This document shows, piece by piece, positions 9,400-25,309 of a DNA stretch of 25,728 nucleotides (position 1 is the stretch's first letter; every line of letters begins with the position of its first letter). This stretch comes from a virus (taxonomy: Duplodnaviria; Caudoviricetes): positions 1 to 25,728 of IMG/VR virus record IMGVR_UViG_3300022719_000188, one strand, 5' to 3'. The notes beneath the pieces were generated by a model. It made no database searches and was not told the DNA's origin. It saw nothing but the letters and a program-made list of their open reading frames with translations. Both the position numbers and the translations under genes were made by a program.

Positions 9400-9696
9400 C
9401 GGTGACCGCGTCGCGCGTCCCGGTGACCGCCCGGAATGCCTTGCGGTCACCGCTCAAGTGCAAGAAATCCTTGGTCTATCTCTCTCTGGTGACCGGGGTG
9501 ACCGTAGTGACCGACACGCGCACGCACGCGCGCTCGCACCCGTTCTTGATCTTCGCGCGCGCGCGCATACGCGAGGCTTGTTGCGGTCACCGCGTGCACC
9601 GCGTGCACCGATTGCGAATTTGCCTGTCATATCAGTGATCTAGCCGGTGACCCCTGCCCATCGTGACCGGTCACCGCAGCGCGCAGGCGGTCACCG
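9400..9696. promoter_or_regulatory. Iteron cluster (GTSACC repeats), putative replication origin
   Basis: About ten GTGACC/GTCACC copies in both orientations, including three at 9-bp spacing (9488, 9497, 9506); no credible ORF. Confidence 0.65.
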
Positions 9697-9778
9697 CCCC
9701 GAGCCCCTCGCCCGTGTGAAATCTCTTGGCATCATAAGGGTCGGGGCGCGCTGGCAACTTTTAGCGGCGTGCGGGTGA

Positions 9779-9828
9779 GGGCGCGGGGCGCGATACGGCG
9801 GGCGCGGGGCGCGATACGGCGGGCGCGG
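9779..9828 (+). repeat. 21-bp tandem repeat GGGCGCGGGGCGCGATACGGC, about 2.4 copies
   Basis: Read directly from the sequence. Confidence 0.9.
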
Positions 9829-9913: not shown

Positions 9914-10894
9914 TCAGGCCATCTCGGCCAGGTCCGGCGCGGGCGCGCCCTCATCCAGGTAGAGCAGCGGGATGAAAGTCGCCCGGTAAGTCACCATGCC
10001 GAACCTGGCGCGGTGCGGCCGCACGCCCGCGAGCTTGCGCAGTACCCAGTAGTGCCGCCCGCCGCGCCAGCGCGTGCCCGCGAAGATGCGCGTGACGGCC
10101 GGGCCGGAGTTTGCGACCAGGAAGCCCTCGCCGCCGCGATGCAACTTCACGCCGTGCCGGATCAGCAGGGCGCGGCCGGCCTCGCTTTCGTCCAGCGACC
10201 CATCGATCAACTCGCGAATGGTGGCGCGCTCCCCGTCGATGTCCGTGACGACGAAATCCAGCAGATGGATCAGGCACTTGCGCGCCTCGTCCCGCTCGGT
10301 GGGCGGCGCGGGCGGCACCTCGGGCAGGCCCATCTTGCGCCACATCTCCTGCGCGCGCGTGCGGCCGTGGACCTTGAGCGCCAGCTCGATGCAGCGCAGC
10401 TTCTCCGAAAAGCTGCCGTCGCGCGCCATGTCCAGCGCCACAGGGTCGGGGCTGGCGCCGGAGTTGTGGCCGTAGCCGCCGTGGCGGCGGATGGCGGGGA
10501 GGACTTCGTGCGTGACCCATTTGCGGAAGCGGTGCTCGACGGTGCCCGGCGTCGCGGCCCGGCGCGAGCGCAGCACGAGCATGTAGAGGCCGCTTTCGGA
10601 GATGATGTTGACGTTCGGGTTGCCGCCTCGATCGCCATTTGCATCGTTTACGCCTAGGGAACCAGGGGGGTTCCCTAGATTAAACCTAGGGTACTCTCCG
10701 GTTTCCTCCGCCCATTTGCGCAGGTTGATGACGTCCTTTTCGTCGTCATCGAGCGCCGCCAGCGCGTCCGATGTATTCTGAATGCCGAGCACGCGGCAGA
10801 CATGCGCCGCCACGAACCACGGCTCGCCGCCGCGCACGATCACCTGCACGGCCTGGTCGTCGAAGACAAAGTTCTCAATTGTGTTGTGAAGCAT
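9914..10894 (-). CDS. Bro-N domain protein (antirepressor-like) with a C-terminal domain resembling the helicase C-terminus
   Basis: GEPWFVAAHVCRVLGI, IISESGLYMLVLRSR and FRKWVTHEVLPAIRRHGGY are canonical Bro-N motifs; AGGAG RBS. Confidence 0.9.
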   Translation of the reverse strand: MLHNTIENFVFDDQAVQVIVRGGEPWFVAAHVCRVLGIQNTSDALAALDDDEKDVINLRKWAEETGEYPRFNLGNPPGSLGVNDANGDRGGNPNVNIISESGLYMLVLRSRRAATPGTVEHRFRKWVTHEVLPAIRRHGGYGHNSGASPDPVALDMARDGSFSEKLRCIELALKVHGRTRAQEMWRKMGLPEVPPAPPTERDEARKCLIHLLDFVVTDIDGERATIRELIDGSLDESEAGRALLIRHGVKLHRGGEGFLVANSGPAVTRIFAGTRWRGGRHYWVLRKLAGVRPHRARFGMVTYRATFIPLLYLDEGAPAPDLAEMA

Positions 10895-10956
10895 AGCCCG
10901 CTCCTACTGATGGGTTGCGAGGAGCATGGCGATCCGTTGCTAGCGGCGCGCCAAGC

Positions 10957-11036
10957 CCGGGGCTAGCAAGCACGCAGTAGGCCGTGCCGCACGCGCCTTT
11001 AGGCTTGCGCCCTGGACATGCGCGCGTGCACCCCGG
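10957..11036 (-). ncRNA. c4-type antisense RNA (P1/P7 C4- or P4 CI-like)
   Basis: About 80 nt closed by CCGGGG/CCCCGG, with an internal GGGC GCAA GCCT hairpin; carries CCTACTG and TTGCTAG, complementary to CAGTAGG/CTAGCAA pairs found both upstream and downstream on the same strand. Confidence 0.8.
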
Positions 11037-11142
11037 ACGCTACGGCCTGTCCGGCCGGCGCGTCCGCCTACTGTCTCATGGGCTTGCTAGACCCCGCTTT
11101 ACATTCGCATCGCTGCGAAATATCGTCAACTGACAACGAGGG

Positions 11143-11619
11143 ATGGGGGATGAAGTGACATTTCTTGCACCTTTTGCAGTGCTTGCCGGTGTAATCGCTG
11201 GGAAGGCTCAAGACCCGCTCATGTGGGTGGCGCTAATTTTTGCTGCTATGACTGGTTATAACCGCGCGTCGTGGTGGTGGCCTGCATTGATCGCAGTCAT
11301 ATTCACCATATCAATCGTCGCCATCAACTATAGCTGGTGGCAGGACACCGGCCTGATCCGTCATTGGCCCCGGTTTGTATTTCTAGGCGGCTTCGCCACA
11401 TTTATTATGACTTATGCAGCCTATGGTTTCGGGCGCGGGGCGCGCCGCGTGTTTACCGGCCCCGAAAGGGTGTATGTTCAACATAGACCCCAGCCGCCAG
11501 CCGACGACTGGTCCGCCGAGGACATGGAACGAGCCGGCCAACAGCTAGAACAGCTCGCCGCCGGCATGAAACCGCGCCGCAGCGCGCTCAGCGACGACGT
11601 GCTGAAGGATCGCCAATGA
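11143..11619 (+). CDS. Membrane protein (3-4 TM), moron-like
   Basis: 158 aa with hydrophobic segments; visibly lower GC in the 5' two-thirds; opposite strand to the flanking operons. Confidence 0.75.
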   Translation: MGDEVTFLAPFAVLAGVIAGKAQDPLMWVALIFAAMTGYNRASWWWPALIAVIFTISIVAINYSWWQDTGLIRHWPRFVFLGGFATFIMTYAAYGFGRGARRVFTGPERVYVQHRPQPPADDWSAEDMERAGQQLEQLAAGMKPRRSALSDDVLKDRQ

Positions 11620-11846
11620 CCGACCTCGAAGACCTGGAGCGCCGCGTCGCCGCGCTCGAAGCCGCGCAGAACGACACCACGCAAACCCTGCGCTGGGTGG
11701 TCTCGAAGCTCGGACAGATGGCCGCGGTGCAGCAGGAGCACACGCTGCGCCTCGACCGCATCGAGGCCGATCTCAAGGGCCTGCGCCAGGACCTGCCCGG
11801 CATCGTCGGCGACGCCGTGCGCGCCGCCCTGCGCGAGGAACGCTAG
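11616..11846 (+). CDS. Small coiled-coil hypothetical protein
   Basis: 76 aa; ATGA coupling; heptad pattern LEDLERRVAALE. Confidence 0.75.
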   Translation: MTDLEDLERRVAALEAAQNDTTQTLRWVVSKLGQMAAVQQEHTLRLDRIEADLKGLRQDLPGIVGDAVRAALREER

Positions 11847-12013: not shown

Positions 12014-13849
12014 CTAGTCGTCCTCCGCCATGATCCCGCCTTCGCCGTAGAGCGCATCCAGGCTGATCAGCGTCACCCGCAAATTCACGCCGTTGACCTT
12101 CGCCCGGCCGACCTTGTGCACCTCCGGCGGGCTCTGGCGCAGCGCGCCGGCCCACACGCTCGCGCCGACCTCTCCGGCCCATTTGCTCTCGGCGAACAGC
12201 GCGCGCGTGAGCGCGTTCTGGTTCGGCACCGCCAGGTAAAAGCTCGCCCGGTCCTTGTCCGGCTGCACGATGCCAAGGCCCGCCTGCGCCAGCAGCCGCC
12301 GCGCCTCGCCAATCTCCAGCCCGTCGTCGATCTGCGCGCGATAGTAATAGTCGTGCACCACCTGCCCGACCGTCTTGCGCACGCCGCCCCGCCACGCCTC
12401 CACCTGCACGCTCAGCATGTGGTTGAGGCACAGCCGCCAGTTCTCTTCGGCGTCCTCGAATTCGCTCATGCCCGCGGCAGCCATCAGCTCGCGCCAAGGC
12501 ACAAGATCGCCCTCGCTCGGCGTGCGCAGCCGCGCCTCGTCCCAGCCCTCATGCGCGATCATGTCCGCGCAGGTGAGCAGCGTGCCGAAGGTGTCCTGCC
12601 CGCGCCCGTCCATGCCCCCGGCGGCCAGCTCGTCGCGGAACGCGGCATAGGTCTGGCTAAAGCGCCACCACTCGTCGATCAGCCGGCGCAGGATCGCCCG
12701 GCCGGCCACATGCAGCGCCTGCTCGTCGATCTCCGGCGCGGGCCTCCCCTTGGGCACGCGCGACAGCTTGAGGATCGCCATGCGCGAGAGGTCCTGCGGC
12801 TCCAGCGGCGGCGTGTTGATCGAGGAGAACAGGAAGCTTGAGCGCGCCTGGAATTCCACGCCCTGGTGACGGTCGCCGCCGCGCAGCATCAGCGCGCCGC
12901 TTGCGGCCAGCCGCGCCAGCTTGAGGACCGCCTTTTGCTTGCGCACATCGCTCTCGCTTTCCAGCTCGTCGACGGCGACCGGCAGGCAGTCATGCCCGAC
13001 ATGCTGATAGATGCCGGCCGCGCTTGTGTCGGCGGACTGGATCAGCGCATCGCCGAAGATGCATTTGATCACGTGCTGCAAGGTGCTCTTGCCCGTCGCC
13101 TTGTCGCCGGTCACGAAGGCTGCCGGCCGCCAGGGCAGCGCCGCGCCCAGGAACGCCGCGCCGATCCAGCCCAGCAGCAGCACCGGGTCCACATCAGGGC
13201 GCGCCCATTGCCATGAGCGCAAAAGCGGCAGCATCATCCGCGCGGGGTTGTGCTCATCCGCCACGGGCGAGGGCCAGGGCGCGGAAATCGCCGGGCGCGT
13301 CGGGTAGACATGGCTGCCCACCTCGCACGGCCTGAATGTGTGCATCTTGCCAGCATCGTCCGCGCGGATCATGCGCGTGCCGGCATGGAAGATCAGCGAC
13401 CCGTCCGCCGTGCGCCACATGCCCCGCCCGCGGATATGGTCGGCCTGGTCCCACGGCCCCTTGGCCGAGCAGGCGCGCACCAGCGTGCTCGCGCACCACA
13501 GCGCGTCGAAGCCGTCGACATTGCCCTTCTGGCCCCAGCGCGGCCACGCCCATGTCAGGTAGTCGATATCCCCGTTGAACAGGCCGAGCAGATGCCCCTT
13601 GCCGTAGGGTGGGGCAATGTCCTGGATTTGCCCGCAGGTGTCGATGAAAAAGCAGATATTGCCCTGCACGCCCAGCGGGATCACCGGGCAGTCCGGCGGC
13701 AGGCCGAGATTGTCCGGCTCCCACTGGCCGTGATTGTGATACGCTTTCGGCGGCGGCACCACGCAGGCCGGCTCGGCATCGGCGACCATCGCCTGCACGG
13801 CGGCGGGGCCTGCGGGGCGGGGTCTGGATTTCGCGTCGCTCAACACCAT
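12014..13849 (-). CDS. Phage replication P-loop ATPase/helicase (putative initiator)
   Basis: 611 aa; Walker A GDKATGKS, Walker B VAVDELE, FLFSSIN and DLSR; same operon as the primase. Confidence 0.75.
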   Translation of the reverse strand: MVLSDAKSRPRPAGPAAVQAMVADAEPACVVPPPKAYHNHGQWEPDNLGLPPDCPVIPLGVQGNICFFIDTCGQIQDIAPPYGKGHLLGLFNGDIDYLTWAWPRWGQKGNVDGFDALWCASTLVRACSAKGPWDQADHIRGRGMWRTADGSLIFHAGTRMIRADDAGKMHTFRPCEVGSHVYPTRPAISAPWPSPVADEHNPARMMLPLLRSWQWARPDVDPVLLLGWIGAAFLGAALPWRPAAFVTGDKATGKSTLQHVIKCIFGDALIQSADTSAAGIYQHVGHDCLPVAVDELESESDVRKQKAVLKLARLAASGALMLRGGDRHQGVEFQARSSFLFSSINTPPLEPQDLSRMAILKLSRVPKGRPAPEIDEQALHVAGRAILRRLIDEWWRFSQTYAAFRDELAAGGMDGRGQDTFGTLLTCADMIAHEGWDEARLRTPSEGDLVPWRELMAAAGMSEFEDAEENWRLCLNHMLSVQVEAWRGGVRKTVGQVVHDYYYRAQIDDGLEIGEARRLLAQAGLGIVQPDKDRASFYLAVPNQNALTRALFAESKWAGEVGASVWAGALRQSPPEVHKVGRAKVNGVNLRVTLISLDALYGEGGIMAEDD

Positions 13850-14672: not shown

Positions 14673-14782
14673 TCTTGCCTCCGGTCCACATCCGTGGCCC
14701 GATCACGCGCAACGCGCGGCGGCCGGTCGGCCTTACAGTCGCGCTCTGGCGCGGCTGGGGCGGTTTCCTTGGTCGCGTTCAT
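14669..14782 (-). CDS. 37-aa mini-ORF (MNATKETAPAAPERDCKADRPPRVARDRATDVDRRQE), mostly encoded by element copy 5
   Basis: ATGA overlaps with both the primase stop and the next start; GAGGGG RBS. Confidence 0.5.
   Translation of the reverse strand: MNATKETAPAAPERDCKADRPPRVARDRATDVDRRQE
14682..14763 (-). repeat. Four-hairpin dispersed element, copy 5
   Basis: + strand: CGGTCCAC ATCC GTGGCCCG ATCA CGCGC AAC GCGCG GC GGCC GGTC GGCC TTA CAGTCGCGC TCTG GCGCGGCTG GGG. Confidence 0.9.
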
Positions 14783-15831
14783 GCCAGCCCCCTCAGTTGA
14801 TCGTTGACATCCTTGCCGGTCGTGGCGTGCGCCACCTTGACCGGCCGCCCTTGGGCGGCAAGCGCCCGCAAGCCGCGCTGCAAGAGCCGCTCCGCGCCCT
14901 CCTTGCCCCAGTCGTTGTCCGCCGCCACGATCACCTCGCCGCAGCACTCGGGCAGGCGGATATTCGCCAGGTTCGACAAGCCCCCGGCGCACCACACCCG
15001 CAGCTCGGGACACGCCAGCGCGAGCGACAGCCCGTCCTCGATGCCCTCGCAGATCGCCAGCACGTCCCACAGGCCCTGCGCGGCCGCTTCGCGCGGCGGC
15101 AGGCCGGTCTCGCCGCGCCACAGATGGATCGCCGCGCCGAGATATTGCGGCCACATCTTGCGCACCGGCTGAACCGGGGCCTTGCCGCCACCGTCGGGCG
15201 CAATGAAGGTGCGGTGGATGGCGTAAAACCCGCCGTCCGGCCCGGTCATCGCCGAGACCAGCGCGGGGAAATGCTGCCCGCTTTCCATGTGCTTCTGGGA
15301 CGGGGAAAACCGCACCGCGCGCGGGGTTCGGGGCAGGTCGGCGAGATAAATCCCGCGGCTGGCCAGGTAGCGCGCGCCGAGACTGCCCGCCAAGCCTTCC
15401 GCGTTCAGCCAGGTCGCCTTCGCCCGGCGGCGGTCGCGCCAGAGCTGCGCGGCCTCTTCCTCGCGCTTTTTCTTGAGCGCCGCCTGGTCGGCCTCCGCAC
15501 GCTCGCGCCATTTTTCCGGCGGCATTTCCGCGATGCCGAGGAAGCCGCGCGCGAAATCGAGCGCGTCCTTGAAGTCGCCGCCGCGGATATACTGGATCAG
15601 CCTGAAGATATCGCCCTTGTCGCCGGTCGCCTCGTCGCGCCAGCAGCCCGGCGCGCCGCCGGAAATCTTGATCCAGAACGAGCCGGCGCGGCGGTCCTCG
15701 CGCGTCGGGTTCTTCGCGATCCAGTAATGGCCAGACTTGCGCCCGTCGGGCACGAGCTCGCGCACGAGGCTTTCCGCGCGCGCCTGCAGGCTCGCCTTGA
15801 TCGCCTCGGTTTCCGCATGGCGCCCGCTCAT
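14779..15831 (-). CDS. TOPRIM-domain DNA primase
   Basis: 350 aa; N-terminal PDGRKSGHYW...WRDEATGDKGDIF, YLASRGI, AIHRTFI, ICEGIEDGLS and VAADND. Confidence 0.88.
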   Translation of the reverse strand: MSGRHAETEAIKASLQARAESLVRELVPDGRKSGHYWIAKNPTREDRRAGSFWIKISGGAPGCWRDEATGDKGDIFRLIQYIRGGDFKDALDFARGFLGIAEMPPEKWRERAEADQAALKKKREEEAAQLWRDRRRAKATWLNAEGLAGSLGARYLASRGIYLADLPRTPRAVRFSPSQKHMESGQHFPALVSAMTGPDGGFYAIHRTFIAPDGGGKAPVQPVRKMWPQYLGAAIHLWRGETGLPPREAAAQGLWDVLAICEGIEDGLSLALACPELRVWCAGGLSNLANIRLPECCGEVIVAADNDWGKEGAERLLQRGLRALAAQGRPVKVAHATTGKDVNDQLRGLA

Positions 15832-19447: not shown

Positions 19448-20167
19448 TTAGTTAAACGTCACGCTGATGCCGCCGAGCACCTGGATAACATCGCTATCCA
19501 GATCCACGCCCGTGGCGTCGCCGCTCACGTCGTGCCACTTGACGACCTCGCCGAACACACCGACCCGCGGGGCGACCTCCAGGCGCACGCCGCCGGAATA
19601 GACCAGCCCGCCCAGGTCCGGATCGCCGGTCTTGGCCGCGCCGAAGCTGACATCGCCGGTCTCAATCTCGCCGTAAGCCAGCGTGCCGAACACCTCCGCG
19701 CCGGGCAGCAGATCGAAAGCCGCGATCGCGCCGGCCTTCCAGTACCAGTCGGCCTCGAAGTCGGTGATCGCGCTGCCCGCGATGGTGAAGGCGTTGTTGC
19801 TGTCGGCGAACAGCCCGGCCTCGGCCAGCGGGCCGAAACTGAAGCGCCCGAAGCGCCGCTCCAGCGTGACGCGGACCGCGCCGAAATAGCTGTCCCCGCT
19901 GACGCCGTCGACGCTGACCGGCCCGGAGCCGGTATCGAAACTGAAATCGCTCTCGCTTGCGGCGATGCCGCCCAGCAGCCAGCCATTAAGCGCCCAGCCG
20001 GCGCGCTCGCGCTCAAGCCGCTCGGCAATGTGCGGATCCTCGACGCCATCGCCGATATCCGCCGCGCCCGCCGCGCCCGTGCCCAGCGCCACCACGCACG
20101 CCGCCAGCACTGCCGCGACCATCGCCGCGAACGCGCCGGCCAGCCATTTCGCTGTCTGGTTCATCAT
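19448..20167 (-). CDS. Outer-membrane beta-barrel protein (8-stranded Omp25/Ail-Lom-like)
   Basis: Signal peptide ending AGA-AD, alternating amphipathic strands, C-terminal GGISVTFN signature. Confidence 0.8.
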   Translation of the reverse strand: MMNQTAKWLAGAFAAMVAAVLAACVVALGTGAAGAADIGDGVEDPHIAERLERERAGWALNGWLLGGIAASESDFSFDTGSGPVSVDGVSGDSYFGAVRVTLERRFGRFSFGPLAEAGLFADSNNAFTIAGSAITDFEADWYWKAGAIAAFDLLPGAEVFGTLAYGEIETGDVSFGAAKTGDPDLGGLVYSGGVRLEVAPRVGVFGEVVKWHDVSGDATGVDLDSDVIQVLGGISVTFN

Positions 20168-20618: not shown

Positions 20619-20696
20619 CCTGCCACAGGTCGTCCGTGCCTTGCTTTTGTGTGGATGAAATAGTCCGCACGTGGTGCGTTATGTGGACAACCTGTG

Positions 20697-21299
20697 ATGG
20701 AAAGATTTTCCGAAAGCGCTCAGGCGCGGATCCGCGAATGGGTGCGCGATATCCTCGACAAGAAGGGCTGGTCCGGCCACAAGCTGGCGCGCGAGGCGCA
20801 GGTCTCGCCGTCCACCATCCACCGCATCCTGCAGGACGACCGTTTCGTTACGGCAACGCGCACCATCGACAAGATCGTGCAGGCGACCGGCGCGGCGGCG
20901 CCCGAGGATATCTGGCGCCGGGCAACCCCGCCAGGCCCGGGACTGCGCGAGCCCGAGGCGGTCTATTACGGCGAGAAAGCCCCGCCGGAGACGCCTGCCA
21001 GCGCGCATGCGGCCGTGTGGCAGCTGCAAAGCCGGGCGCTGCAACTGGCCGGCTGCCTGCCCGGCGATCTGCTCACCGTGGATCCCGGCACAGCCCCGCG
21101 CGCGGGCGATATCGTCTGCGTGCAGGTGATCGATCCGGCATCCGGCGAGGCCGAAACACTGTTCCGGGTCTATGACAAGCCCTATGCCATGACGGCGGCG
21201 GCTGACCCGCAGGCCCAGCGCAAGCCGCTCATGATCGACGACGAGCGCGTGCAGGTCTGGGGCACTGTGGTGCGCGTGGAACGAAACACCCGCGAGTGA
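20697..21299 (+). CDS. CI-like repressor (XRE HTH plus degenerate S24-like domain)
   Basis: WSGHKLAREAQVSPSTIHRIL HTH; PGDLLTVDP..PRAGDIV and VQVWGTVV S24-fold motifs. Confidence 0.85.
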   Translation: MERFSESAQARIREWVRDILDKKGWSGHKLAREAQVSPSTIHRILQDDRFVTATRTIDKIVQATGAAAPEDIWRRATPPGPGLREPEAVYYGEKAPPETPASAHAAVWQLQSRALQLAGCLPGDLLTVDPGTAPRAGDIVCVQVIDPASGEAETLFRVYDKPYAMTAAADPQAQRKPLMIDDERVQVWGTVVRVERNTRE

Positions 21300-23285: not shown

Positions 23286-23491
23286 GCGACGCGCTGAAGC
23301 GCAAACACGAAGCAACGCTGCCAGCCCTGCGCGAGGCGGTCCGTGCGCCTTACGGCAAGGCGATCGCGAAGCTGCGCGCCGCCGGGCTGTGGGATGAAAC
23401 CCGCCCGCAAAAGCTCGACGCTCAGGCGCGCGCGGCGTTGCGCGGGGCCGCGACACGCTCTACGCTCGGCGACGACAGCGGAGAGCGGTGA
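23282..23491 (+). CDS. Hypothetical protein
   Basis: 69 aa; GAGGA RBS; coupled on both sides. Confidence 0.55.
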   Translation: MSDALKRKHEATLPALREAVRAPYGKAIAKLRAAGLWDETRPQKLDAQARAALRGAATRSTLGDDSGER

Positions 23492-23607
23492 TGGCGATTG
23501 CGTATTGCACCCCAGCCGCGCCTTCGGGCGCGGCTGTAAGCCCGACCGGGCGTCGCGCCTCAGGCGCGGATCAGCGGCACGGATTTGCCGCTGGAGGCCA
23601 AAAATGA
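23491..23607 (+). CDS. 38-aa mini-ORF (MAIAYCTPAAPSGAAVSPTGRRASGADQRHGFAAGGQK), mostly encoded by element copy 10
   Basis: TGATG overlap upstream, ATGA overlap with the integrase start, GGAG RBS. Confidence 0.5.
   Translation: MAIAYCTPAAPSGAAVSPTGRRASGADQRHGFAAGGQK
23507..23593 (+). repeat. Four-hairpin dispersed element, copy 10
   Basis: GCACCC CAGCCGCGCC TTCG GGCGCGGCTG TAA GCCC GACC GGGC GT CGCGCC TCA GGCGCG GAT CAGCGGCA CGGATT TGCCGCTG. Confidence 0.9.
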
Positions 23608-24743
23608 AGCTCAAGGTCGCGTATCTCAAGTGGCGCGACGGCCGCCCGCGCTGGGAGCCGGGGCCGCGCCTGCGCGAGAAAGGGTGGCGGGGCCGTGACC
23701 TGAAGGACGAGGGCGGCGACTGGCTCACCTTGCCGGACGCGATTGCCGCGGCGGAAAACCTCAATGCCGAGGTCGCCGCCTGGCGCGCGCGCGGCGGCAG
23801 CGTCCCGCGCCGGCCTGCGCCCCCGCGCAAGTCCGCGCGCACCTGCGAGCACCTGTGGGACCTGTGGAAGCAGTCCCCGAAATTCACCAACCTGAAAGCC
23901 TCCACCGCGCGCGATTACCGCAACAAGATGCGCGTGTTCCTCGACGAGTTCGCCGAAGTCCCCGTCGCCGCGATCGAGCGCTCACACCTGTACGTGTGGT
24001 GGGAGCGCCAGTATCACGCGCGCGGGCACACCATGGCCAACGGCATTCTCGCGGTCGTGCGCTCGATGTTTTCGCACGCCACGCGCATCGGCTGGCGCGC
24101 CGACAACCCCGCGCGCGAGCTCGGCCTGCCCGGCGCGGCGCCGCGCCTGGTCCTGTGGCTTCCCGGTGAGGTCTCAGCGCTTGTCGACGCCGCTGACCGG
24201 CTCGGCCTGCCCAGCATCGGCGACGGCGTGATCGTCGGGCTGCACACCGGCCAGCGCCTCGGCGACGTGCTGGCGCTGCCCGACCGGCTGTTCGCCGAAA
24301 CCCGCATCAAGCTATCCCAGGCCAAGCGCGGGGCGCGCATCGACGCGCCGATGACCCCGGCGCTTTCGCAGCGCATCGCCGCGATCCGCGCGCGCCGTCA
24401 CGCCCATTCGGTCGTGGCGATGGACGCGCCGCTGATCCTGCAGGAGAACGGCCGGCCCTATGACAGCAACAATTTCGGCAAGGCGTTCCGCCGCGTGCGC
24501 GCGGAAGCCGCGAAGGCGCGTCCGGCCGTGGCCGACAAGAAGTATCAGGATCTGCGCGACACCGCCGTCACGCGCCTGGCGCTGGCCGGATGCGAGCTGT
24601 GGGAGATCGGCGCGATCAGCGGGCACTCGATGAAATCGATCACCACGATCATCCGCCACTATCTCGTGTTGCAGCCGGAAATGGCGGATGCGGCCATCGC
24701 CAAGCTGTCCCGCTGGCTCGAAGAACAGGAGATCGCGCTGTGA
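23604..24743 (+). CDS. int: Tyrosine recombinase/phage integrase (379 aa)
   Basis: GGAGG RBS then ATG 23604; TGQRLGD (R), QAKRG (K), QDLR, SGH and RHY catalytic motifs. Confidence 0.93.
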   Translation: MKLKVAYLKWRDGRPRWEPGPRLREKGWRGRDLKDEGGDWLTLPDAIAAAENLNAEVAAWRARGGSVPRRPAPPRKSARTCEHLWDLWKQSPKFTNLKASTARDYRNKMRVFLDEFAEVPVAAIERSHLYVWWERQYHARGHTMANGILAVVRSMFSHATRIGWRADNPARELGLPGAAPRLVLWLPGEVSALVDAADRLGLPSIGDGVIVGLHTGQRLGDVLALPDRLFAETRIKLSQAKRGARIDAPMTPALSQRIAAIRARRHAHSVVAMDAPLILQENGRPYDSNNFGKAFRRVRAEAAKARPAVADKKYQDLRDTAVTRLALAGCELWEIGAISGHSMKSITTIIRHYLVLQPEMADAAIAKLSRWLEEQEIAL

Positions 24744-25309
24744 TGCCCAAAGTTCCGTATCTCAAATGGCGCGACGGCCGCCCGCGCTGGGAGCCGGGGC
24801 CGCGGCTGCGCGATCAGGGCTGGCGCGGGCGCGATCTGAAGGGCGACGACGGCGAGTGGCTGGATTTTCCCGACGCCATCAAGGCGGCTCAAAACATCAA
24901 TGTTGAAGCCGGAGTGACGACGCGCATCCCGAAGACACGCCCCAACAGCAACGCCAAAGGGTTCGTGTATTTTTTATGGTCGGAAGACTGTATCAAGATC
25001 GGCTATTCGCGCGAGGCTTTCCGCAGAATTCAAACATTGAACGCGAGCAGCCCATCGGGCATCAAAGCCATAGGCATTGTGCGCGGAACGCGCGCCGACG
25101 AACAGCGCCTACATGACGCACTGTCCGCTTCTCGCAACTATGGCGAATGGTTTTGGGCCACCGATCACGTCATAGCCACCATGACCCAGTCGCTGGCGCA
25201 ATGCAAACCAGTCGTTGCTAAAAGCATTCGAAAAAACGACAATCGGCAACAATCGGCAAGGACAGCGGTCGCAACCCCTTTGAATAGCGAATGCGACATA
25301 GATTTGTAA
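24743..25309 (+). CDS. Fusion of an integrase N-terminal domain copy and a GIY-YIG-superfamily (T5orf172/MUG113-like) domain (188 aa)
   Basis: TGATG coupling to int; 38/50 aa identical to the Int N-terminus; GFVYFL...IKIGYS...RRIQTL..SSP...EQRLHDAL..SRNYGEWF motif. Confidence 0.85.
   Translation: MPKVPYLKWRDGRPRWEPGPRLRDQGWRGRDLKGDDGEWLDFPDAIKAAQNINVEAGVTTRIPKTRPNSNAKGFVYFLWSEDCIKIGYSREAFRRIQTLNASSPSGIKAIGIVRGTRADEQRLHDALSASRNYGEWFWATDHVIATMTQSLAQCKPVVAKSIRKNDNRQQSARTAVATPLNSECDIDL
25239..25258 (+). repeat. Tandem ACAATCGGCA x2, candidate integrase arm-type sites
   Basis: 10-bp direct repeat about 40 bp from the att core. Confidence 0.5.

Follow-up and report, generated by a model that had tools for sequence, protein, structure and literature searches.

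We report that a Bro-N regulator of a temperate phage ends in a domain that, as judged by sequence comparison, is homologous to the C-terminal domain of the helicase encoded in the same genome, and that across pairs of such proteins a few residues of this domain follow those of the resident helicase. The window, i.e., the whole 25,728-nt stretch of DNA analysed (virus record IMGVR_UViG_3300022719_000188, positions 1 to 25,728; Caudoviricetes), carries the regulator gene on its minus strand at 9914..10894 (P0001, 326 amino acids (aa)) and, on the same strand at 12014..13849, a stand-alone AAA+ helicase/initiator-like gene (P0002, 611 aa, Walker A at aa 248-256). Our most far-reaching interpretation, to which we give slightly less than an even chance, is that a family of such regulators captured the origin-reading winged helix of a self-loading helicase and keeps adapting its wing to the origin of the resident phage. 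Each regulator would then be a motor-less, RNA-gated competitor at the origin that ties the lysis-lysogeny decision to replication initiation, and a large unannotated helicase family would use a Gln-A, Lys/Arg-G recognition code.

The regulator starts with a Bro-N domain (aa 16-133, 10496..10849, minus strand; Pfam PF02498, E 2.8e-18, 66.8 bits vs a gathering cut-off of 25.6), and the PHROG matches labelled 'anti-repressor' cover this part only. Its aa 199-326 returned no Pfam match at E<=0.05, so the tail is none of ANT/KilAC, ORF6C or P22_AR_C. An earlier note on this DNA, written from the letters without database searches, had claimed that the tail resembles the helicase C-terminal domain colinearly over about 115 aa, and all comparisons agree with it. 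Regulator aa ~201-316 (about 9947-10294) run colinear with helicase aa 472-610; BLASTP aligns the two tails with 43/140 identities (31%, E 0.002); their Smith-Waterman score of 65 compares with a mean of 28 and a maximum of 59 in 2000 shuffles; and the regulator tail matches PHROG 21086, the helicase family, at E 9e-8. The profile comparison that the note had set as a check is likewise significant: with 84 regulators set against 121 helicases, HHalign gave a probability of 97.2 (E 4.6e-11, 113 columns), and with 22 regulators set against 24 diverse helicases it gave 99.8 (E 4e-28). A phmmer search with the tail against 1.8 billion representatives returned 177 matches, the best 150 of which were examined; among the matches listed, 34 exceed 420 aa, all of them homologues of the window helicase core, which in some is joined to Prim-Pol, Toprim or PriCT-2. 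Three cultured Bordetella phage records likewise have primase-helicase genes whose ends the tail matches (E 4e-5 to 6e-4).

The earlier wording of an apparent copy stands in the sense of a homologous domain and falls in the sense of a duplicate of the phage's own helicase tail, the two being anciently diverged paralogs. For the window regulator the own helicase tail ranks 107/141, in a list whose top ranks favour matches found with this query, and for eight regulators the resident helicase ranks 20th to 114th of 141 helicase tails. A quick tree of 213 domains, computed over 140 columns and leaving many forks unresolved, places the own helicase inside a 58-row clade with support 100 and zero regulators, while 75/85 regulators fall together (support 86) and ten are scattered among the helicases, with 9 changes on a short alignment. 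Rank and tree together rule out a recent in-place duplication; the regulators evidently acquired the domain in the distant past, in one or a few events, and from a different branch of the helicase family. Recent gene conversion was also considered and left no sign in five pairs, given that cognate wing DNA is identical at only 15-24/39 bases. Whole-domain co-evolution with the resident helicase gave no signal by local alignment in eight pairs (p 0.14); by aligned columns in ten pairs it reached p 0.007, and 0.11 once the wing was removed.

Both domains are predicted to be winged helices, as the note had assumed, on the strength of models and common structural neighbours with modest Z-scores. 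The AlphaFold models of the regulator domain (aa ~201-316, 9947..10294, minus strand) and the helicase domain (aa ~472-601, 12047..12436, minus strand) have a predicted local distance difference test score of 91.2 and 90.5, respectively, and share helix order and a terminal beta-hairpin. Among 48,161 chains their top four neighbours are identical, i.e., the SaPIbov1 Rep C-terminus (8tch), a DUF1528 domain (2ipq), 3kq5 and TcpK on oriT DNA (5vfx), followed by Cch, HSF and ETS domains. Against the SaPIbov1 Rep C-terminus the regulator model scores Z 4.5 (root-mean-square deviation 4.3, 98 aligned) and the helicase model Z 4.8 (4.1, 92 aligned). Structure matches to primase-helicases in the ESM Atlas cover regulator aa 157-319 with template modelling scores of 0.63-0.68, a span that takes in the two-helix module described below, which may therefore also have a counterpart in the helicases.

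The helicase matches PHROG 21086 (E 1e-70) and the primase PHROG 35358 (E 2e-37) and has no Pfam match; DUF5906 is matched weakly by 15/47 relatives, and neither D5_N nor Pox_D5 by P0002 or any of the 47. It cannot be recognised as a member of the P4 alpha type, as those two domains give no match and a Toprim primase occupies a separate gene (14779..15831, minus strand); the tail is nearest to that of Rep from staphylococcal pathogenicity islands (SaPI). Sequence searches against solved structures brought no match for the helicase, and Foldseek with the helicase model returned nothing at E<=0.001.

The iteron array that had been pointed out at 9400-9697 is present: nine GGTSACC repeats in both orientations mark a likely replication origin between the regulator and a terS-like gene, and the whole window holds 15 vs 2.0 expected by shuffling. 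In many relatives the array begins no more than a few hundred bases from the helicase stop; in the window a 2.3-kb block containing the regulator separates the two. No iteron array was found near orphan regulators or in the loci L155 and L156. Between regulator and origin, 9779-9820 is a 21-nt tandem of two exact copies, present as a single copy in L004. The helicase-origin block also harbors two open reading frames (ORFs) on the opposite strand (11143-11846, plus strand), candidate accessory or exclusion genes encoding a hydrophobic protein of 158 aa without family assignment and one of 76 aa that matches DUF7553 weakly.

To relate wing and origin, we took as wing residue X the position two before the conserved Arg (Asn589 in the window helicase) and as iteron base the third before the repeat end, and counted the 67/89 helicase loci that had five or more repeats and whose anchor could be read, the repeat pattern having been restricted after a first look. 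Where X is K or R the iteron base is G in 25/26 loci, and where X is Q it is A in 12/12; any other residue accompanies T (13 loci), G (10), C (5) or A (1). Wing and iteron traits change 7-11 times on the helicase-core tree. These counts support, without proving, a helicase wing that reads the origin iterons. For SaPI PriRep5, a C-terminal winged helix that binds iterons and a wing that contacts major-groove bases have been described (bioRxiv 10.64898/2026.10.17.759575). Helicase loci in which a hydrophobic residue or His replaces the conserved Arg have CTAAC repeats.

The regulator wing seems to follow the helicase of its own genome. In ten regulator-helicase pairs the three residues before the Arg show more likeness than under permuted pairing (p 0.0004, 0.005 when corrected for 99 alignment segments), a likeness spotted by eye before testing. 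Six new same-contig pairs, collected after this segment was fixed, served as a held-out set: of 720 possible pairings the true one scores highest (p 0.0014), as it does whichever pair is dropped, and the rest of the domain gives p 0.54. With a seventh pair added, on separate contigs and outside the main test, the triplet has p 0.0002 and X taken singly 0.049. In the full set of 16 pairs X is identical in 7, with 1.7 expected (p 0.0003), and the triplet reaches z 5.5 in three alignments, a value attained by zero permutations after correction for all segments; the rest of the domain shows no signal (p 0.17-0.28). Leaving out L001, L155 and L156, the triplet still has z 4.0 and a corrected p of 0.004. 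The pairs are mostly unrelated to one another, with a median identity between pairs of 27-28%; exact X matches include pairs 12-24 kb apart (G633, G922, G594, L039), so adjacency is not the explanation.

Wing turnover is also apparent among close relatives: P0006, 86% identical to the window regulator, keeps 3/13 wing positions vs 91/98 others (one indel included), and its type of wing recurs in L004, where the iteron is GGTAAC. Across regulators X is mostly Q, T or A, with K or R in 3/84, and the basic residues on the recognition side are kept as R/K in 81/84 and 74/84. The origin-related role that the note had suggested for the regulator thus gains support from the covariation of its wing with that of the resident helicase.

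By its sequence architecture, the regulator belongs to a widespread accessory family in which a Bro-N, Rha or P22_AR_N domain is followed by a two-helix module and the winged-helix tail, with the core and basic residues of the tail conserved in 84 diverse members. The 116 short matches that make up the remainder of the best 150 of 177 carry Bro-N (41), Rha (14) or P22_AR_N (2) at their N-termini; all but one of the Rha matches are at or below the Pfam cut-off, one protein fits both Bro-N and Rha, and 60/116, many of them fragments, have no Pfam match. The module (aa ~160-197 with its Pro-rich linker, 10304..10417, minus strand) is conserved between the N-terminal domain and the tail, and also terminates many shorter P22_AR_N and Bro-N proteins lacking a winged helix; a motif scan of 68 loci found it in 29, only one of them with the tail. 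Given such module-terminated proteins, the tail is an add-on to an antirepressor-type scaffold, comparable to ANT/KilAC in AriS-like proteins (PMC9043618), and in HHalign against helicases the winged helix alone aligns and the module does not.

The regulator gene occurs in 6/50 helicase-bearing phage records, mostly complete ones, and in 0/35 mostly fragmentary records. Among 13 alphaproteobacterial genomes with a regulator, from four scans, a helicase lies within about 25 kb on the same contig in 8 and on another contig in 1, and none was found in 3; nor was one found in two motif-found virus fragments carrying a regulator. In L157 (7036-11505, from G024) four Rha-domain ORFs stand in tandem at ~1 kb spacing, interspersed with three sRNA-Xcc1 matches; the final ORF has the two-helix module and the winged helix at its end. 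L001 (1-6710) and L004 (1-4858) show a compact order of regulator, origin, terS-like gene, scaffold and major capsid gene, and helicase, with no terL, portal or primase in between; their genes are ~78% identical to those of the window (helicase >90%), their iterons are GCGAAC and GGTAAC, respectively, and they are possibly a satellite or a deletion derivative. A segment of the window Bro-N domain, 10660-10700, is an insertion that by eye resembles non-coding DNA downstream of the L001 regulator (~570-620).

Ahead of the regulator gene lies a C4-like leader (10937..11094, minus strand) in which the seed CTAGCAA (11084-11090), its complement (10963-10969) and the seed again (10937-10943) are spaced by 121 and 26 nt. 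In C4-type switches, as in P1 and P4, the downstream genes are silent in the lysogen and briefly made after infection. Four relatives (L250, L059, L247, L248) show the same geometry, with 99-102 and 29-30 nt and each with its own seed, and in a scan of 22 loci Rfam C4 (RF01695) scores above threshold upstream of the regulators in L250 and L059 and sRNA-Xcc1 is matched ahead of two others. The window leader itself gave no RF01695 match at the gathering threshold or at E<=10, and a sequence-only model built from seven relatives' leaders found neither it nor L247. Its 75-nt core adopts a fold other than the C4 closing stem, two hairpins and unpaired seed (z -0.15); L247, 89% identical over 46 nt, folds with the C4 topology, and the 256-nt leader as a whole has a better fold than any expected from 200 shuffled versions (z -4). 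Ahead of the leader, the minus strand showed no sigma-70-like promoter. The c4 RNA control proposed in the note is therefore likely on the evidence of geometry and of the two Rfam-positive relatives, its weak side being the lack of an Rfam match in the window.

Taken together, binding of the regulator to the origin, whatever its effect, is in our view probable from the sequence patterns, and a brake on replication has about an even chance. The leader, likely a C4-type switch, would permit expression for a short period; the two-helix module may hold the regulator together while Bro-N may aid docking on DNA; and the wing would dock on the same iterons as the helicase. Having no ATPase, the regulator would compete with helicase loading, so that a motor-less protein might block or delay helicase self-loading early in infection and damp replication during the lysis-lysogeny choice. 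An antirepressor-type role could coexist with origin binding via the N-terminal part, in which case the CI-like repressor (20694..21299, plus strand; helix-turn-helix and a weak S24 match) is a candidate target.

Several observations weigh against this interpretation. The window's own pair is not identical at X, with Thr302 (9989..9991, minus strand, two before Arg304) in the regulator and Asn in the helicase, and is compatible solely as 'small residue, T-type iteron'. The L001 (N/M) and G1081 (R/P) pairs also differ at X, and all three K-type helicases (L024, L009, L036) are paired with E or Q regulators, for which the code predicts that the regulator does not read its own iterons. Without L155 and L156 the ten-pair wing signal drops to p 0.027, 0.82 corrected, the rest of the domain giving 0.027 too; in the held-out set the p corrected for all segments is only 0.051-0.06. 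As for the helicase code, 10 G-type iterons accompany non-K/R residues, and the 4-5 independent tree pairs, which agree in direction, are too few for significance (p 0.125). The regulator gene is missing from 44/50 helicase records, and the family helicase was not found in G821, G024, G987, G001 and G002, several of them incomplete. The best structural Z is 5.2 for the regulator and 4.8 for the helicase, all being below 8, and with Z only 4.3-5.2 the assignment as a winged helix stands as a prediction based on the consistency of the matches. Finally, wing covariation is silent on the sign of the effect, brake or helper.

An ordinary modular antirepressor or transcription regulator, whose winged helix is a shuffled C-terminal domain for loose DNA or repressor binding with no link to the origin, would account for the interchangeable N-termini of the short matches, for the 'anti-repressor' labels on the Bro-N part, for orphan regulators and the 9/16 regulators lying 12-25 kb from their helicase, and for C4-type leaders, which in P1 precede antirepressors. 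In AriS-like proteins the same N-termini swap before ANT/KilAC (PMC9043618). Such a protein has no reason to match the resident helicase at the wing and nowhere else in the domain, nor to replace its wing among close relatives with differing iterons, and we regard this explanation as unlikely. A further alternative sees the tail as a passenger in decay and explains the wing match by small numbers or shared composition; the small sample and the inspection of the first ten pairs before testing speak for it. Core and basic residues conserved in 84 diverse proteins, the held-out replication, the silence of the domain beyond the wing and the low identity between pairs make this very improbable indeed.

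Other alternatives keep DNA reading by the tail. An origin-binding helper, boosting early replication by bending or pre-organising the iterons or by tethering the origin, fits the whole covariation evidence equally, and a C4-type switch would allow such a helper to be made as replication begins, at infection or induction. We nevertheless find a helper improbable, as most phages of the helicase family lack the gene, a motor-less reader most simply competes, and SaPI Reps self-load without accessory factors (bioRxiv 10.64898/2026.10.17.759575). It is somewhat less probable still that the target of the regulator is not its own origin but iteron-like sites elsewhere, either in rival phages or satellites or as operators of its own genome. 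Mismatched and orphan regulators, the dominance of Q, T and A over K/R in their wings and the compact related element with different iterons in the dataset would suit such a target; self-matching is enriched, yet a weapon against rivals should avoid self, and the six GGTSACC sites beyond the window origin are scattered with no clear operator pattern.

Bro-type shuffling, C4-type leaders and winged-helix origin domains are already known, and the new elements here are the wing-iteron code and the wing match between regulator and resident helicase. Judged from titles and the openings of abstracts, the literature searched has no description of a Bro-N/helicase-tail fusion, an earlier mention in Iyer et al. 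2002 or in subscription journals being possible. In Listeria AriS and its Bro-N and pRha variants, N-terminal domains swap before a common ANT/KilAC C-terminus (PMC9043618). The regulator shares with these temperate-phage accessory proteins an interchangeable N-terminal DNA-binding domain before a common C-terminal module, but ends in the two-helix unit and a helicase-type winged helix instead of ANT/KilAC, and its wing tracks the resident helicase.

The self-loading helicases SaPI Rep/PriRep5 and SCCmec Cch (8tch, 5dgk, 7pds) are, like the window helicase, of the AAA+ type with a C-terminal winged helix, predicted in our case; an iteron origin just downstream of the gene and a wing reading bases, the latter again predicted here, complete the likeness (bioRxiv 10.64898/2026.10.17.759575). 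The likeness to Rep and Cch is at the fold level alone (Z 3.0-4.8, no sequence match), and the accessible portion of that preprint describes no free paralog of the PriRep5 reader domain. In phage P4, cnr controls copy number and alpha is a primase-helicase (PMC8628076). P4 resembles the window in that a C4-type RNA switch precedes what is likely a regulator of replication, and differs from it in that alpha unites primase and helicase, separate genes here, and in its D5_N/Pox_D5 type. P4 alpha binds its origin through a winged-helix domain, is under CI RNA control and has GGTGA-type iterons similar to those of the window; Cnr acts on alpha by protein contact and is not known as a winged-helix paralog. 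In the immI operon (c4-icd-ant) of P1/P7 a C4-type leader likewise precedes an antirepressor-like gene, whose product has a C-terminal domain different from that of the window regulator. An analogy in action is papillomavirus E8^E2, where the origin-binding domain of a replication protein on a short N-terminus is a replication brake; that protein is spliced from the same gene and has an unrelated fold, whereas the regulator is a separate ancient paralog.

Bro-N, Rha and AntA proteins bear the label 'antirepressor' in many phage genomes, mostly untested. For this subfamily the prediction is specific and cheap to examine: it names both a DNA target and a specificity residue, and nature supplies swap controls. 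If true, it would represent a new route by which temperate phages govern replication at their origin, a paralogous reader domain standing in place of a repressor or a helicase-binding protein, and the wing-iteron code would match origins to initiators from sequence in this helicase family.

The 25.7-kb record is 62% complete. Capsid, portal-like and terminase-region genes fill the left part of the window, and a tyrosine integrase gene (23343..24743, plus strand) marks the phage as temperate. Named relatives of the helicase come from Hyphomicrobiales and point to an alphaproteobacterial host. Beside a cro-like gene, a 239-aa ORF (19448-20167, minus strand) with no Pfam match encodes an apparent secreted outer-membrane beta-barrel. 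At 24590-25309 (plus strand) lies a gene for a T5orf172/MUG113 protein that has at its N-terminus a repeat of the N-terminal integrase sequence, the integrase being encoded just upstream.
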